From: a virus
Virus record (IMG/VR): IMGVR_UViG_3300045988_126281
Length of the DNA: 64,000 bases
Strand: one strand, 5' to 3'
A program made the position numbers and the translations under genes. The notes under the pieces are model-generated. The model saw nothing but the letters and a program-made list of their open reading frames with translations, did no database searches and had not been told where the DNA came from. Below, one piece after another: positions 1,525 to 64,000 of this stretch. Each line of letters starts with the position of its first letter. Within the stretch, counting starts at the first letter, position 1.

Positions 1525-4500
1525 AATTTTTTATCTTTAGTTACGTTATATTTTAAATCTTCAAACTCAACACGTCTTTCAGAATCACTAAAAGTAAATG
1601 AAGCAATAAAATAATTTCCATAAAGTCGAGACATTATATCTCCATAAATTTGTTTCCCATTGTGTTGAGAACCTTTATTCCTAAGATAACTAAAATTCCA
1701 ATTATCTAAATCCCAATAAGGTTTTTTATAATTATCAAAAGCATTTTTAGCTTTTTCAGTATCAATCTTTATATCAATAACGCCAGTATCAACGTTATGA
1801 TTAAATACTCTTAATGTATCACCAGAATAAGGAAGTTTCAATCCCTCTACGGGCAGTTGAATATAATCTTCATTAGACTTATCTATTTTATAAAGTTTGT
1901 ATGTAAGATATTCAAGATATTTAACTGTGTCATAAATAGTAAAACTACCTTTATCTGTAATATAAGCTCCTAATATAAGTATATCGATTTGAGAATTGTT
2001 AATTAATTGTTTAGTATAATTTTCAAAATTATTATAAGAAGTATTAGTAAGATTAAAATAATCAATATTAAAAATAGATTTAAGTTGATTGTCTTTCCTG
2101 CCTGTAAAGAAATATAGTTTGTTTTTAGTATTAATACCTTCTTCAAATATATAATCATGGAAAGAAATATAATTACCAAGTTTATAATTAAAGCTTATAA
2201 TTTTATTATCTTGCTTAGTAATATCTTGATAATCAAATCTAATAAGAAGTCTATTACTTATTTTATCATTAGCAAATCTAACTCTATTGGGTTTATATTT
2301 ATTAAGCCATTGAATAATATCATTATCAAGATTATTAATTTTTCCTTGACCAAATTGATATAATCTATGAGCATCATTATCATAAAAAATATAACCAAAA
2401 TCATCAGCAATCCAAGCTCTATCATCTTGTAATCCACAAATACCCAAAGTAGAAGTAAATACTTCTTTATAGTCAATATCAAATATATCAGGCATTGCAA
2501 GTTGAACATCTTTATCTTGTGTTTTCATAGTATTGTCTCTATTAAACATAAACAAAGAATGTTCAGTATGAACAAGAAGAGTAGTACCCATTGCAAGAAG
2601 ATTAGTAATATTTCCTTTATTTTCTGTAATATCTTTATATCCTTCTAAAGGAAAAATTCTCCAAGCATTTTCATTGCTTTCATCTTGAATAACATTGCTC
2701 CTATAAATACGTTTATTATAAACATTAAGATAAGAAATATTTTTATCATAATTAGTATAAGTTTTAGGATTACTTATATCTTGATTATAATATTTTTCTT
2801 TAAATAAATCAACAGTATCAGAAGGTTCTACAATACACCCATTTCCAAAAATAAAAGTTTGATTTTCTTCAGTTTCACTTGCTTCACTAAGTTGTGTAAC
2901 ACAAACTTTAGGAGGATTTTTAAAAGATTTAGCTTCAAGCATTTTATCTTTATAAACAGCAAGTTGAAGATAAGCAGCAGGGTGAGAATATTTAAAAAGA
3001 TTATCATCTAATTGAAAATTACTTCCAAAAGCCCAAGTAGGATAATAAGCATTATATGAATAGTTAAGAATAACATTTTTGCCAGAATCAAATATAAATT
3101 TATTCCAATTATAAATTAAAAAATCATTATATGTTGAATGCCCATTAAGACCTTCTTTAAATTCTTTAACTTTACCTTCAGTAAAATATTCAATATTAGT
3201 AAATTTAATAAGATTCTTATTTTCATTAACATAAAGTTCAGTAGTATCATTAAGAAGACTTGCTTTATATATAATATATTCTCCATTAGGAAAAAGTTCT
3301 TTGATTGTAGAAGTTGGTAAAGTAATTTCAAGACAAGTCCCTAAACCGTTTTGACCTTCGGTGGCATCTCCTGCAACTTTAATATTATATTTACTAATAG
3401 GAATTTCAATATTAACAGAAGTTCCGCCTTTTTCAGGAATATTAAGATTATAAGCAAATTTAGCATTAACTACAGCTGGGTTAATAATAAAAATATCTGT
3501 TACTCCAACGTCAATATCTCCATAAACCCAATCTTGAACATCAAAACAATTTTTCTTTTCAAGTCTAAGTTTGTTATATTTAAGTTCAAGATTATCAGTA
3601 ATATCAAATTCACTACTATAAAATTTAACAGTAGTTAAATTATCAGAATCAATAGCATTATAATTTTCATTTCTAACAATAGTTTTATTAGTATAAACAG
3701 TTGAAGCAACTTTAGTAGCTTTTTGTTCTTTATTATAAAAATCAAATTTAGTAAGAACTCCAGTAGTTTTACAAGTGCTTTCAAATTGTTCATATGTAAG
3801 AAAATATCCTACATATTCATTAGGAATATAAGTATTTCCAAAATCAATTTGAAGAGTAAGTCTATGTTTAATAATATTATCTTTAAAATTACTTAATTCA
3901 ATATAAGGAACTTTAAATAAAGCATCTCCATTTTTATTAATGACTAAATTAAAATTACCTTGACCATTATTAGGCAATTTATATCCTCTTGAAACTTCTC
4001 CATATTTATTTACAAAATGAATATAAAAAGCATAGGTCTCACCAGGAATAAGAGTAGTTTCTTTTTTACGTCTATTATAAGAATTATTTGTATTAATAAA
4101 ATCAAATGAAGTTAAAGAAGAAACATCTGGAGATATTTCTCCATTTTCTTTAAAATTATTAATACTAACAGTTAATTGAACTTCACTTGGAACATTAAGA
4201 GCTGTTAAACCACGGGCATGCCAATATTGAACTCCATTATAAATTCCATCAATATCGTATTGCATATATCCACCGCCTTGACTTCCATATCCATTTCTAG
4301 TCCAATTTAAAGTAATGTTTCCAATAAGTTCATTATTACTATTATAAAGATGAGCAGTTTCAGTTTCAGTACTTCCTTGATTAAACAAACTTGTTTTAAA
4401 AATTAAAGTAGTAGCATTTAAATTAATTTTACCAAAATGGTCTGATTTAATATAACTAGGTTTAGTATTTGTGTCAACTGTATTACTTCTTTTAATTATT

Positions 4501-5717
4501 CTATTAGTATTATTTTGTTTTGTTTTAACTTTTGTTTCTATATCAGTACAACCTTTTTCATCAGCAAAATAAATGCTATGCTTATAATAATCATCATAAA
4601 CAACATTTTCTTGTTTCCATCTAAGAATTATATTAGATAAATCTATATTAGGAATATTTTCTTCATTATAATTAGCAATATAAAGCCTATTTTGATAATT
4701 AATAATATTCTTTACGTTATAAAAATTATAATTATCTGTAATAAGATTAGTAACAGAATAAGTAACACAATTATTTATTTCAAGTTTATAATTTGTTACA
4801 TTAATTTTTATATCATTAGTTTTAAATGCTTTTTGAGAATCTTTTGTGGCACAAATAAAACCTATTTGATAATATTTATATCCGAGTTGTTCTGATTTAT
4901 TAAGTCCATTAATATCAAATGTAATAGTTTCATTAGCAATTTCTATATCATCTGAAATATAATCAGAACAACCAGTCATAAAATAAAGTTTCCATTTACC
5001 AGAACTATCAGGAAGGTCATTAATCCAACCTGAATAATAATATTTAATTATATCTCGTTCAATAAGGTCAGAAACAAATATAGGATAACCTAAATGAAAC
5101 CAAGAAGTATAATCAACTTTATTAATTTTAAATCTAATAAAGAAATTATACCAACCTTTATAAGCGTTTCCAATGGTATATTCTTGGTTAATAAGTTTTG
5201 GAATATAAACTTCTGGAGCATTACTAAGTAATCCATTTTTAAGATTAACATCAGTATCATCTCCATTTATACCAAATTTACCAATATTAATGGTTCGTAA
5301 AGGAATATTAAACTTAGTATTATATTCAGCAATAGAAAGTATAAGATTACTTTGTACATTATAAGTAAATGTACCTTTTATTTCTCCTCCGTGATATTCA
5401 AATTTGTTATATGAAATCTCACAAGAATTTTTATCTTCATTATATCTAACTATTGAAGCATTTGTTGGAAAAGAATCACCTTTATAAACTATTAAAATTA
5501 ATTCTACATTACAAGGAATAACTCCAGCAATATTCCAATCATTACCAAAATTATTATTAATAAAACTTTCAATGACTCTATTATGGAAAATACTATTTTC
5601 ACTTTGTAAACAACTAAAATCATTAGAAACTTTTACATTCCTTGCATTAACAAGAATTAAATCTTCACAATCTTTCGGGTGTTTATTAAGAACAAGTTTT
5701 TTATTTATATTTGGCAT
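1521..5717 (-). CDS. Large tail or receptor-binding structural protein (1398 aa)
   Basis: Single uninterrupted 4.2-kb ORF in the structural module, N/Y/T-rich and beta-rich, typical of tail fibre or spike proteins. Confidence 0.8.
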   Translation of the reverse strand: MPNINKKLVLNKHPKDCEDLILVNARNVKVSNDFSCLQSENSIFHNRVIESFINNNFGNDWNIAGVIPCNVELILIVYKGDSFPTNASIVRYNEDKNSCEISYNKFEYHGGEIKGTFTYNVQSNLILSIAEYNTKFNIPLRTINIGKFGINGDDTDVNLKNGLLSNAPEVYIPKLINQEYTIGNAYKGWYNFFIRFKINKVDYTSWFHLGYPIFVSDLIERDIIKYYYSGWINDLPDSSGKWKLYFMTGCSDYISDDIEIANETITFDINGLNKSEQLGYKYYQIGFICATKDSQKAFKTNDIKINVTNYKLEINNCVTYSVTNLITDNYNFYNVKNIINYQNRLYIANYNEENIPNIDLSNIILRWKQENVVYDDYYKHSIYFADEKGCTDIETKVKTKQNNTNRIIKRSNTVDTNTKPSYIKSDHFGKINLNATTLIFKTSLFNQGSTETETAHLYNSNNELIGNITLNWTRNGYGSQGGGYMQYDIDGIYNGVQYWHARGLTALNVPSEVQLTVSINNFKENGEISPDVSSLTSFDFINTNNSYNRRKKETTLIPGETYAFYIHFVNKYGEVSRGYKLPNNGQGNFNLVINKNGDALFKVPYIELSNFKDNIIKHRLTLQIDFGNTYIPNEYVGYFLTYEQFESTCKTTGVLTKFDFYNKEQKATKVASTVYTNKTIVRNENYNAIDSDNLTTVKFYSSEFDITDNLELKYNKLRLEKKNCFDVQDWVYGDIDVGVTDIFIINPAVVNAKFAYNLNIPEKGGTSVNIEIPISKYNIKVAGDATEGQNGLGTCLEITLPTSTIKELFPNGEYIIYKASLLNDTTELYVNENKNLIKFTNIEYFTEGKVKEFKEGLNGHSTYNDFLIYNWNKFIFDSGKNVILNYSYNAYYPTWAFGSNFQLDDNLFKYSHPAAYLQLAVYKDKMLEAKSFKNPPKVCVTQLSEASETEENQTFIFGNGCIVEPSDTVDLFKEKYYNQDISNPKTYTNYDKNISYLNVYNKRIYRSNVIQDESNENAWRIFPLEGYKDITENKGNITNLLAMGTTLLVHTEHSLFMFNRDNTMKTQDKDVQLAMPDIFDIDYKEVFTSTLGICGLQDDRAWIADDFGYIFYDNDAHRLYQFGQGKINNLDNDIIQWLNKYKPNRVRFANDKISNRLLIRFDYQDITKQDNKIISFNYKLGNYISFHDYIFEEGINTKNKLYFFTGRKDNQLKSIFNIDYFNLTNTSYNNFENYTKQLINNSQIDILILGAYITDKGSFTIYDTVKYLEYLTYKLYKIDKSNEDYIQLPVEGLKLPYSGDTLRVFNHNVDTGVIDIKIDTEKAKNAFDNYKKPYWDLDNWNFSYLRNKGSQHNGKQIYGDIMSRLYGNYFIASFTFSDSERRVEFEDLKYNVTKDKKL

Positions 5718-5747
5718 AAATAAAAATTATTGTAGATTTTGAATCAA

Positions 5748-5760
5748 TTTTAGGCTCTGT
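5748..5760 (-). promoter_or_regulatory. ACAGAGCCTAAAA box (on the - sense strand) 31 nt upstream of the tail-protein start codon
   Basis: ttttaggctctgt on the + strand, identical to 1050..1062. Confidence 0.45.
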
Positions 5761-5841
5761 AATGAATGTTTGTCTTAAATATGATAAGTTATATATTTTT
5801 AATAAAATCATTCATTACAAGTCAAGCAAAGTACCAAAGAA

Positions 5842-63676: not shown

Positions 63677-63679
63677 ATT

Positions 63680-63943
63680 ATGATTTTTTATTATACTCTT
63701 AATATTCGTTATTGTGATATTTCTAAAAAGAAAATAGATAATATTGAATGTTCTTGTGCTACTAATGGTGTTCAGCGTTCTATTAAAGATATTTCTGATT
63801 ATTATCAAAATCTTTATGATTGGGTCATAATAGATTGTGATGCTGAAATACAAATTTGGAAAAGTATTAAATTTACTATTCTTGATTTTATTTTTAAATT
63901 TGATTGGATTAGAAATAAATTTACTAAAATTGAAAAAGATTAA
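63680..63943 (+). CDS. Small hypothetical Cys-containing protein
   Basis: 87-aa ORF. Confidence 0.45.
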   Translation: MIFYYTLNIRYCDISKKKIDNIECSCATNGVQRSIKDISDYYQNLYDWVIIDCDAEIQIWKSIKFTILDFIFKFDWIRNKFTKIEKD

Positions 63944-63966
63944 TGTTTAACTGCCTGTAAAGGGAT

Positions 63967-64000
63967 TATATATATATATATATATATATATATATATATA
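63967..64000. repeat. (TA)17 dinucleotide microsatellite at the window end
   Basis: Read directly. Confidence 0.9.

Follow-up and report, generated by a model that had tools for sequence, protein, structure and literature searches.

Dispersed, strand-alternating sequence words with lineage-specific dialects in crAss-like phage genomes

Dispersed genomic signal words are known as a kind. The closest described systems are the DNA uptake sequences (DUS) of Neisseria and the uptake signal sequences (USS) of Haemophilus, Chi sites with a length of 5–8 nt, and the single-strand initiation (ssi) signals, such as the G4-type complementary-strand origins and ssiA and ssiB of RSF1010, which are read by the RepB' primase. 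Comparable phage systems are the nick motifs of T5, the phiKMV-like phages and tf, and the promoters of the T7 group and of the N4 virion polymerase. Here a motif of approximately 20 nt is analysed in a 64 kb stretch of the virus record IMGVR_UViG_3300045988_126281 (referred to as the window; all window coordinates refer to the full stretch), for which a preliminary description had reported 24 copies in both orientations. There is a substantial chance that the arrangement of this motif is a new kind of viral genome organisation.

The consensus in the window is (A/T)AACTGCCTGTAAAGG(A/G)AT. Its central word CCYGTARAGG occurs exactly 17 times against 0.08 expected from dinucleotide shuffles, and, when as many as two mismatches are allowed, there are 22 matches to the 15-mer AACTSCCYGTARAGG compared to 0.2 expected. 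A position weight matrix (PWM), derived from the window copies themselves and applied with a cut-off of 14 bits, gave 26 sites (15 on the plus and 11 on the minus strand) compared to 0.1 in shuffles; this comparison with shuffled controls had been named beforehand as a check, and the outcome is far above chance. The scan recovered all 24 positions of the preliminary description within a few bases, including those called weak or slightly offset, namely 42606 (42608(-), TCCTGCCTTTAGAGGGAT), 7438 (7437(-)) and 59553 (59556(-), CTTCCCCTGTAAAGGAAT), and it added two new copies, 15633(+) with CACTGCCCGTAGAAGG and 19967(-) with AACTGCCTTTAAAGG. The information of the motif spans 15–24 nt with an asymmetric, non-palindromic core, and its words are GC-rich within a genome of 28% GC. 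Approximately 70% of the sites are genic. As had been observed, genic copies lie in genes of either strand and in different reading frames (five of the six in the window), where they are translated as LPV(K/E), T(A/T)CK, FTGR, PSTG, PL(Q/R)G and LYRQ, and the claim that conservation acts on the nucleic acid rather than on the protein is supported. The two variant types that had been noticed, CCTGTAAAGG (n=12) and CCCGTAGAGG (n=4), are indeed separated by transitions, two in number, and are interconverted at orthologous sites of close relatives. The form CCTGTAAAGG is an AT-shifted derivative of the widespread CCCGTAGAGG, the latter still being used at four window sites.

The sequence of the window places it among the crAss-like phages of the Intestiviridae, its terminase and portal genes sharing ~73–75% DNA identity with those of cr3_1 and p-crAssphage (Carjivirus communis). 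De novo k-mer enrichment was used to find the dialects of related genomes, and each was found to possess its own version of the motif at the same density. There are 31–32 copies in cr3_1 (dialect TTCCCCCGTAGAGGAA, written ttGTTCCCCCGTA(G/A)AGGAA), 32 in p-crAssphage (BK010471, L087+L088; dialect TAGACYCCCCGTRGAGGATGGA, with a 24-nt consensus and 31 copies perfect over 12 nt), 32 in the cultured Churivirinae phage crAss002 (dialect TTCCCCCRTARAGGAG, written TTCCCCC(G/A)TA(A/G)AGGAG) and 12 in 50 kb of the Obtuvirinae phage cr8_1 (dialect (G/C)CCCCGTAAAAGgtatg). Further dialects, e.g., ACTCCCCCGTAGAGGGAA, TTCCCTGTAGAG and GCTTGCCCGTAGAGGAA, occur in 21 Crudevirinae-like IMG/VR loci, and one more distant locus uses CTAGCTnCCCCGTCATAGAG. 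Common to these dialects is a core of approximately CYGTARRGG following a C-rich run, and both strands are used throughout (plus/minus splits of 18/14 in p-crAssphage, 15/16 in cr3_1 and 14/18 in crAss002). Among 185,579 bacterial and archaeal species representatives (596 Gb), none carried the window motif more than once, and a host origin or a motif shared with the host was rejected on the 41 scattered single matches, which correspond to chance level; a scan of IMG/VR likewise gave single matches at chance level outside the relatives of the window phage. The motif is thus enriched in related phages and does not recur in bacterial genomes, the very comparison on which the preliminary description had staked its claim. 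As no bacterial genome carries the motif repeatedly, its reader is probably encoded by the phage.

Protein-anchored mapping indicated that 40–50% of alignable sites coincide between genera, compared to ~4% expected, with the orientation being the same in every case. At such sites each genome writes its own dialect, giving FTGR, SSTGE or SSTGGQ in the tail-tubular-like gene, PSTGR or SSTGGQ in the family-B DNA polymerase (PolB), LFYRQ or LYGG in the primase, and LPVEE, CPPAEE or LPPVED in the ligase. The primase site (window 55394) is present in all 21 Crudevirinae-like loci, cr3_1, p-crAssphage and crAss002; the loop that holds it lies between the Toprim motifs of the primase (window 54573-55760) and is missing in the primases of distant crAss-like phages without the motif (L108, L109). 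In the dUTPase the motif fits a conserved KLP stretch and is therefore not an insertion. Closer IMG/VR relatives of the window carry the same motif in the same places. Most sites are not shared between genera, the non-orthologous ones turning over while the total stays at 31–32 per genome. As far as sequence comparison can tell, this means long-term selection on the DNA word together with concerted change within each lineage, from which it follows that a reader of the word should co-evolve with it; the likeness of the lineage dialects to phage polymerase-promoter pairs also supports a co-evolving reader. As a separate observation, the tail-protein copy at 68495 of p-crAssphage has been swapped in strain C0526BW15 (C0526; L154+L155) for a divergent allele, ACAACCTGTCGAGGTTGAA, with no compensating copy nearby.

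The sites are also ordered along the genome. Pooled over both strands, spacing in the complete genomes is more even than random (coefficient of variation (CV) 0.63–0.67 vs 0.96), and on each strand taken separately the CV is 0.31–0.52 compared to 0.92 for random placement (P <1e-4 to 0.009), a regularity which also exceeds that obtained by permuting strand labels over the real positions. Orientation therefore alternates, in the window at 17 of 23 steps (19 of 25 with all 26 sites), and in five genomes pooled at 84 steps against 56.9 expected (P<5e-5), or 64 against 43.6 with close pairs removed. Each strand carries one copy per ~5–6 kb, interleaved with those of the other strand, a pattern kept up even within the 12-kb polymerase gene of p-crAssphage. 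Per-strand regularity combined with alternation is predicted by a strand-specific 'coverage' function and not by an orientation-blind duplex site. Two simpler placements were rejected. Against regulatory placement, the proximity of the sites to gene boundaries does not significantly exceed that of random positions, and against a restriction to the lagging strand, orientation does not flip between the two gene arms. The sites of the window and one adjoining hairpin are as follows.

1844..1858, minus strand: AACTGCCCGTAGAGG, sense in the gene for a 1398-aa P22 gp10-like protein (QLPVEG); ortholog at cr3_1 19020
2096..2110, plus strand: TCCTGCCTGTAAAGA, antisense in the same 1398-aa P22 gp10-like gene (FTGR)
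6387..6401, plus strand: CCCTGCCTGTAAAGG, antisense in the tail-tubular-like gene 5842..6687 (FTGR); same-orientation orthologs at cr3_1 14358 and p-crAssphage 58727
7437..7451, minus strand: weaker copy AACTACCTGTAAAGA (20.4 bits), sense in 6659..7588
15633..15647, plus strand: CACTGCCCGTAGAAG, antisense in 14467..16014 (PSTG); new
19967..19981, minus strand: AACTGCCTTTAAAGG, sense in 19627..20214; new, kept in L034
26094..26108, plus strand: left arm of an intergenic, convergent pair, with the portal gene (26169..28586, minus strand) on one side and the next gene on the other
26124..26138, minus strand: right arm of the convergent pair with 26094
31134..31148, plus strand: AACTCCCTGTAAAGG, antisense in 30837..31292 (PLQG)
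32400..32414, plus strand: AACTGCCTGTAAAGG, antisense in 32180..32548 (LYRQ)
35855..35869, plus strand: TCCTGCCTGTAAAGG, at the divergent boundary of the gene arms and the cumulative GC skew minimum
37273..37287, plus strand: CCCTGCCCGTAGAGG, the left one of two convergent copies separated by 110 nt, in a gene-poor part beside the arm boundary
37383..37397, minus strand: AACTGCCTGTAAAGG, right member of the convergent pair with 37273
42363..42377, plus strand: AACTGCCTGTAAAGG, its first base being the last base of the stop codon of 41716..42363
42608..42622, minus strand: TCCTGCCTTTAGAGG (24.5 bits), just within the next ORF after 41716..42363
44930..44944, minus strand: TCCTGCCTGTAAAGG, intergenic, antisense to the flanking genes, abutting a GC hairpin
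44945..44964, no strand assigned: 8-bp GC-rich hairpin GTGGGTGC-GCAA-GCACCCAC, its loop given for the plus strand, the one complementary to the motif (-10.8 kcal/mol, z = -2.85)
47314..47328, plus strand: AACTCCCTGTAAAAG, sense, 52 nt into the uracil-DNA-glycosylase-like gene (KLPVKE)
48992..49006, minus strand: TCCTGCCCGTAGAGG, antisense in the family-B DNA polymerase gene (PSTGR); orthologs at cr3_1 61234 and p-crAssphage 10168
50317..50331, plus strand: ATCTGCCTTTAAAGG, sense in the SNF2-like gene
55394..55408, minus strand: TCCTGCCTGTAAAAG, antisense in the DnaG-family primase gene (LFYRQ); the most deeply conserved site
57390..57404, plus strand: GCCTCCCCGTAGAGG, sense in the DNA ligase gene (LPVEE); orthologs at cr3_1 52314 and p-crAssphage 18157
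59556..59570, minus strand: CTTCCCCTGTAAAGG (14.8 bits), antisense in 58961..59686
60509..60523, plus strand: AACTACCTGTAAAAG, sense in the ThyX-like gene
62001..62015, minus strand: GCCTGCCCGTAAAGG, antisense in 61593..62246 (PLRAG)
63285..63299, plus strand: AACTCCCTGTAAAGG, sense, 37 nt into the dUTPase gene (KLPVKG)
63949..63963, plus strand: intergenic, 6 nt past the last ORF of the replication arm; counterpart at cr3_1 44003

Tight convergent pairs, 26–120 nt apart, mark major landmarks. In the window these are 26094/26124, between the portal gene and the next gene, and 37273/37383, next to the divergent arm boundary; the former can form a 17-bp hairpin (-17.7 kcal/mol, z = -8.2), much as the preliminary description had proposed for an inverted pair beside the portal gene, and is kept in the related loci L027 and L034. 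Copies at the arm boundaries of the window are 35855, 37273/37383 and 63949, and in p-crAssphage the pairs 95745/95864 and 28077/28172 lie at the two arm boundaries, upstream of the RepL genes, with a further pair at 22901/22927. In a related IMG/VR phage (L107), four copies in the strict order + - + - occur within 180 nt (17292-17470); they make up two pairs able to form hairpins, close to where the replication arm ends. The reported placement of copies at stop codons was also borne out, with 42363 overlapping one and 63949 lying 6 nt beyond one.

Sense and antisense placements of genic copies are balanced in four genomes (9:10, 12:11, 13:12 and 12:13). It follows that selection acts on the DNA, the signal not being read in mRNA, and a role at the mRNA level is unlikely. 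In the preliminary description the core was suggested to form a 3-bp stem closed by a GUAA tetraloop and to act perhaps in RNA processing or stability. Neither proposal stands up well: single copies fold no better than shuffles (z ~0), the commoner dialect CCCGTAGAGG cannot form the stem and the variable T/C and A/G positions are not pairing partners, which leaves a GNRA RNA hairpin unsupported, while a processing or stability element fits poorly with the equal share of antisense copies. Among the candidate functions originally listed, a phage-specific recognition factor and uptake-like self-marking are still live, and the RNA element is unlikely.

On this evidence our tentative reading is that a co-evolving phage enzyme uses the copies on each strand as strand-specific signals at which it initiates or enters to make primers, and hence DNA. 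The signal would be strand-specific and cis-acting, and is probably read on single-stranded or transiently unwound DNA. Its reader would be a phage-encoded enzyme of DNA metabolism whose specificity co-evolves with the motif, and its role would be to provide distributed start sites for primer (RNA) synthesis, comparable with ssi signals or with promoter-like origins of phage polymerases, with the opposed pairs at arm boundaries representing bidirectional starts. Given one site per ~5–6 kb on each strand, no stretch of either strand would then lie far from a start site. These phages encode PolB, an SF1 RecD-like helicase and an SNF2 ATPase and no DnaB-type helicase, together with RecT, a Gp157-family protein, an ATP-dependent ligase and a late-module PD-(D/E)XK nuclease. 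Candidate readers are the DnaG-family primase and the giant crAss RNA polymerase. For the primase, the only match was a crAss-specific PHROG, and solved structures offered no relative. The crAss virion RNA polymerase transcribes single-stranded DNA efficiently, and the giant enzyme has no known promoter (bioRxiv 10.1101/2020.03.07.982082). A search for a reader protein among the small window ORFs at 35.7-43 kb gave no match in PHROGs or Pfam.

Mini-hairpins with GNA loops are hallmarks of single-stranded DNA signals, e.g., the N4 virion-polymerase promoters (PMC4496689), and they accompany the motif in several of these genomes. The heptamer d(GCGNAGC), a stable mini-hairpin, occurs 10 times in the p-crAssphage genome; 9 of these occurrences are no more than 40 nt 5' of a motif, in every case on the complementary strand, and the same heptamer is found near the motif in 8 of 10 cases in C0526, 3 of 6 in crAss002 and 2 of 10 in cr3_1, with no window site adjoined by one. 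Mini-hairpin spots of p-crAssphage include 6033-6060, 28050-28076, 28184-28210, 93640-93666 and 95876-95900, among others. The long form consists of GACCCGCT, a GC stem with a GNA or GNRA loop, followed by tCGCT-WRACY-CCCCGTRGAGGATGGA, with the stem ending exactly 12 nt before the core. Intergenic sites are over-represented, with ~1/3 of p-crAssphage sites falling in the 7% of its DNA that is non-coding, and intergenic single copies are antisense to their flanking genes in 14 of 16 cases; the complementary strand of the motif, which reads CCTYTAC and then a G run, points in gene direction at these 14, and in long forms a stable stem-loop comes after the G run.

A similar architecture was met outside the Intestiviridae. 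The phage crAss001 (Steigviridae; MH675552, L156+L159) is without the window-type motif and carries an unrelated 9-mer, CTTCTGGAG, in 27 exact copies compared to 0.87 expected from triplet shuffles. This word occurs on both strands (e.g., 1580+, 6485-, 8022-, 8664+ ... 102365-, 102416+), its single-mismatch variants are rare, its orientation alternates at 18 of 26 steps (P=0.018) and its copies on the minus strand are regularly spaced (CV 0.46, P=0.001). In the Steigviridae this word may correspond to the window motif, and the architecture may be a Crassvirales-wide property. It is quite possible, if not yet probable, that the Crassvirales, including the prototypical crAssphage, are organised by an undescribed genome-wide signal of ~30 lineage-specific words, set at 5–6-kb intervals on each strand, strictly interleaved and read by a co-evolving phage enzyme, whose sequence is unrelated from family to family (CCCCGTAGAGG-type in the Intestiviridae, CTTCTGGAG in crAss001). 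Distant loci were also searched for other motifs with mismatch-tolerant k-mers, but at too low a sensitivity to be useful. In another locus (L112, IMG/VR 3300030372_004928) the word AGATTATGA occurs 11 times and follows gene direction (8 plus, then 3 minus), and is probably a shared start-codon context rather than a dispersed signal.

A number of points weigh against distributed initiation of primer synthesis. Its mechanistic steps, i.e., reading on single-stranded DNA, the start of RNA or DNA synthesis and the identity of the reader enzyme, are ones that we infer. Known DnaG-type primases recognise trinucleotides and not 15–24 nt. A stem of at least 4 bp adjoins only 9 of 182 sites (~5%), one of them in the window (44945-44964), and the hairpin was therefore rejected as a general partner of the motif. 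The distant crAss-like phages L108 and L109 possess the same module of PolB, SF1 helicase, SNF2, RecT and ligase, and the motif was not detected in them. The replication genes of crAss001 are PolA, a DnaB-type helicase and a DnaG primase; an analogous motif in a phage with DnaB indicates that the architecture does not track the replication module, and it weakens the argument that a primase lacking a helicase partner needs such signals. These two cases together led to the rejection of a rule by which the motif is present where a DnaB helicase is absent. The compared genomes are related, so that the pooled spacing and alternation statistics are not fully independent. Finally, short-range conservation is slight. 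Between p-crAssphage and C0526, which are 97% identical, identity is 96.9% in the core vs 97.0% in the flanks, i.e., there is no extra conservation; changes fall mostly at the degenerate positions, R being altered at 5 and Y at 3 of the 32 sites, with the loss of one site. In three comparisons among window relatives, motif and flank identities are 93.7% vs 89.3%, 94.7% vs 95.5% and 95.6% vs 95.1%, with T/C and A/G variants interconverting at the same site. Constraint is therefore visible only over long distances.

It is conceivable, though rather unlikely, that the motif is instead a Chi- or uptake-like mark of self, by which a phage-encoded (less likely a host) helicase-nuclease, terminase or translocase reads one strand to spare, recombine or package phage DNA. 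Headful packaging, which is reported for crAss002 (PMC8042965), would suit such a role. So would statistics like those of DUS/USS and Chi, namely the use of both strands and of coding and non-coding DNA, tolerant protein loops, dialects and inverted pairs at gene ends; the absence from bacteria; the Chi-sized, sharp 9-mer of crAss001; the SF1 RecD-like helicase, PD-(D/E)XK nuclease, RecT and Gp157-family protein of these phages; and the interleaving of orientations, which minimises the distance from any break to a correctly oriented site. However, we know of no phage-encoded Chi system, and the conserved stretch of 15–24 nt is much longer than known Chi. Nor does a self-mark give a role to the mini-hairpins or to the orientation bias of intergenic copies. 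In an indirect and weak test for a recombination hotspot or module boundary, the edges of divergence blocks between the two Carjivirus strains p-crAssphage and C0526 showed no association with sites, their median distance being 1479 nt vs 966 nt for random positions.

Nicking of the motif by a phage enzyme, producing localized single-strand interruptions as in T5, the phiKMV-like phages and tf but on both strands, is unlikely. The known nick motifs are sharp 9–19-mers at ~4–14 sites per genome, inside genes of ligase-encoding phages (PMC3517423), and the present motif is likewise strand-specific and regularly spaced in a phage with an ATP-dependent ligase and a late-module PD-(D/E)XK nuclease. 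Those nicks, however, all lie on one strand (for the tf motif, 14 of 14 on the top strand and none on the other; PMC3517423), whereas here orientation alternates, and convergent copies 26–120 nt apart, if both were nicked, would give staggered double-strand breaks. The nicks of T5 are, moreover, dispensable (PMC3517423), whereas this motif has been held over subfamily-level divergence.

Binding of duplex DNA by an architectural, partition or condensation protein of the phage, serving replication factories, plasmid-like maintenance or packaging, would account for a long, sharp and lineage-specific motif with ~30 sites per genome and even overall spacing. The lifestyle of p-crAssphage is reported to be plasmid-like (PMC10983915); it encodes RepL, and motif pairs lie upstream of both RepL genes. 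Such a role is nevertheless quite unlikely, as a site blind to orientation predicts neither the alternation nor the extra regularity on each strand, the motif is asymmetric, the mini-hairpins are strand-specific, and RepL was not seen in the window or in cr3_1.

The orientation of intergenic copies bears on a further explanation, by which the complementary strand (CCTYTAC then GGGG) is a gene promoter for a phage-specific RNA polymerase or sigma-like factor. In length, sharpness and dialects the motif is like T7-group promoters, and the intergenic singles that face a downstream gene (14 of 16) usually do so from 20–150 nt before its start, some being followed by a stem-loop. Promoters are, for all that, very unlikely, since approximately half of the genic copies would fire antisense, and sites lie deep in giant genes at regular intervals and are not significantly nearer to gene boundaries. 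In phi14:2, early transcripts are without a common motif and the middle and late promoters are sigma-70-like (bioRxiv 10.1101/2020.03.07.982082). The last explanation is either a REP-, MITE- or GC-cluster-like selfish repeat of miniature size, spread by insertion, or else an RNA structural element. It is highly improbable and largely refuted, for although GC-rich words in a 28% GC genome, some hairpins and inverted pairs, and the absence of the motif-bearing primase loop from distant homologues would suit it, orthologous sites keep their orientation across genera while the dialect changes in concert, no target duplications or fixed-length presence/absence indels were seen, the copy in the dUTPase gene did not arise as an insertion, a selfish repeat would not be expected to be regularly spaced or to alternate, single copies do not fold and half of the genic copies are antisense.

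The structural genes of the window lie on the minus strand up to ~35.8 kb and the replication genes on the plus strand beyond, with the cumulative GC skew turning there. The region at the arm boundary and skew minimum (35739-37587) contains three motif copies but, as ORFs, only doubtful ones, and may be an origin or a regulatory region; its 271-aa ORF (35739..36554) has the look of AT-rich non-coding DNA put into translation and found no match in PHROGs. A search of the window against Rfam matched no family other than tRNAs, three genes of which (Lys-TTT, Leu-TAA and Gln-TTG) lie at 43382-43698 in the early/replication arm. A (TA)n microsatellite occupies 63967-64000, directly after the last motif copy, at the end of both the replication arm and the window. 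Two direct repeats of 85–100 nt with 71–75% identity (13477-13573/17556-17652 and 14356-14440/15924-16008) connect the neighbouring minus-strand genes 13478..14446, 14467..16014, 16018..17547 and 17557..18906, which suggests, as far as sequence goes, that these are successive paralogs for tail or fibre proteins whose termini are shared.

The crAss-like phages dominate the human gut virome, with the prototypical crAssphage being the most abundant, and their replication, packaging and persistence are largely obscure. A family-wide word to which the coding of polymerase, primase, ligase and tail genes gives way must have a part in some central transaction of the DNA. If it defines start sites of DNA or primer synthesis, or marks viral DNA as self, it would amount to a way of replicating or of recognising self that is new for a double-stranded DNA phage, and to a viral counterpart of uptake sequences, Chi or ssi signals. 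Both crAss002 and crAss001 are in culture, which opens the sites to mapping, to mutation and to use as bait, and the dialect provides a diagnostic signature for classifying metagenomic crAss contigs. A description of the motif was not found in the searchable full-text literature, subscription-only literature being outside its scope, and no paper there prints the sequence in a crAss context; nor did term searches find a mention in the phi14:2 polymerase preprint, Yutin 2021, the crAssphage phage-plasmid preprint, the crAss002 paper or the 2023 Crassvirales review.

When set beside the known systems, the motif resembles DUS and USS in its distribution. It shares with them a short, asymmetric, over-represented word in both orientations, genic in several frames and present in coding and non-coding DNA. 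In both, the word is accommodated where proteins tolerate it, its spacing is more even than random, lineages have their own dialects, and inverted pairs at gene ends yield hairpins. It differs in being carried by a virus, with no uptake machinery, in its greater length (15–24 nt) and in the alternation of strands. Chi is likewise over-represented, strand-specific and species-specific, and marks self DNA for a helicase-nuclease, but it is shorter, skewed with the direction of replication and a recombination hotspot, whereas here orientation is balanced. The ssi signals are strand-specific and single-stranded, combine a stable hairpin with flanking conserved sequence, are inverted for opposite strands and have a dedicated primase; however, they number one or two per replicon and lie at the origin, whereas the present sites are ~30 in number and dispersed, most of them without a hairpin, with the primase as a candidate reader only. 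The nick motifs of T5, phiKMV-like phages and tf (5'-TACT/RTGMC-3' and 5'-CGACxxxxxCCTA/CTCCGG-3'; PMC3517423) are also sharp, phage-specific, genic and strand-specific words of enigmatic function, found at anything from a handful to tens of places, but are confined to one strand, whereas the motif described here occupies both in alternation. Finally, the promoters of the T7 group and of the N4 virion polymerase resemble it in being ~20-nt conserved, lineage-specific sequences that co-evolve with a phage enzyme, in the G run that follows the conserved block on the complementary strand and, for N4, in GC stems with G-N-A loops such as adjoin some of the sites (PMC4496689). Unlike these promoters, of which N4 has three at one genome end, the crAss-like motif occurs in ~30 copies per genome on both strands, and approximately half of its copies oppose the genes.

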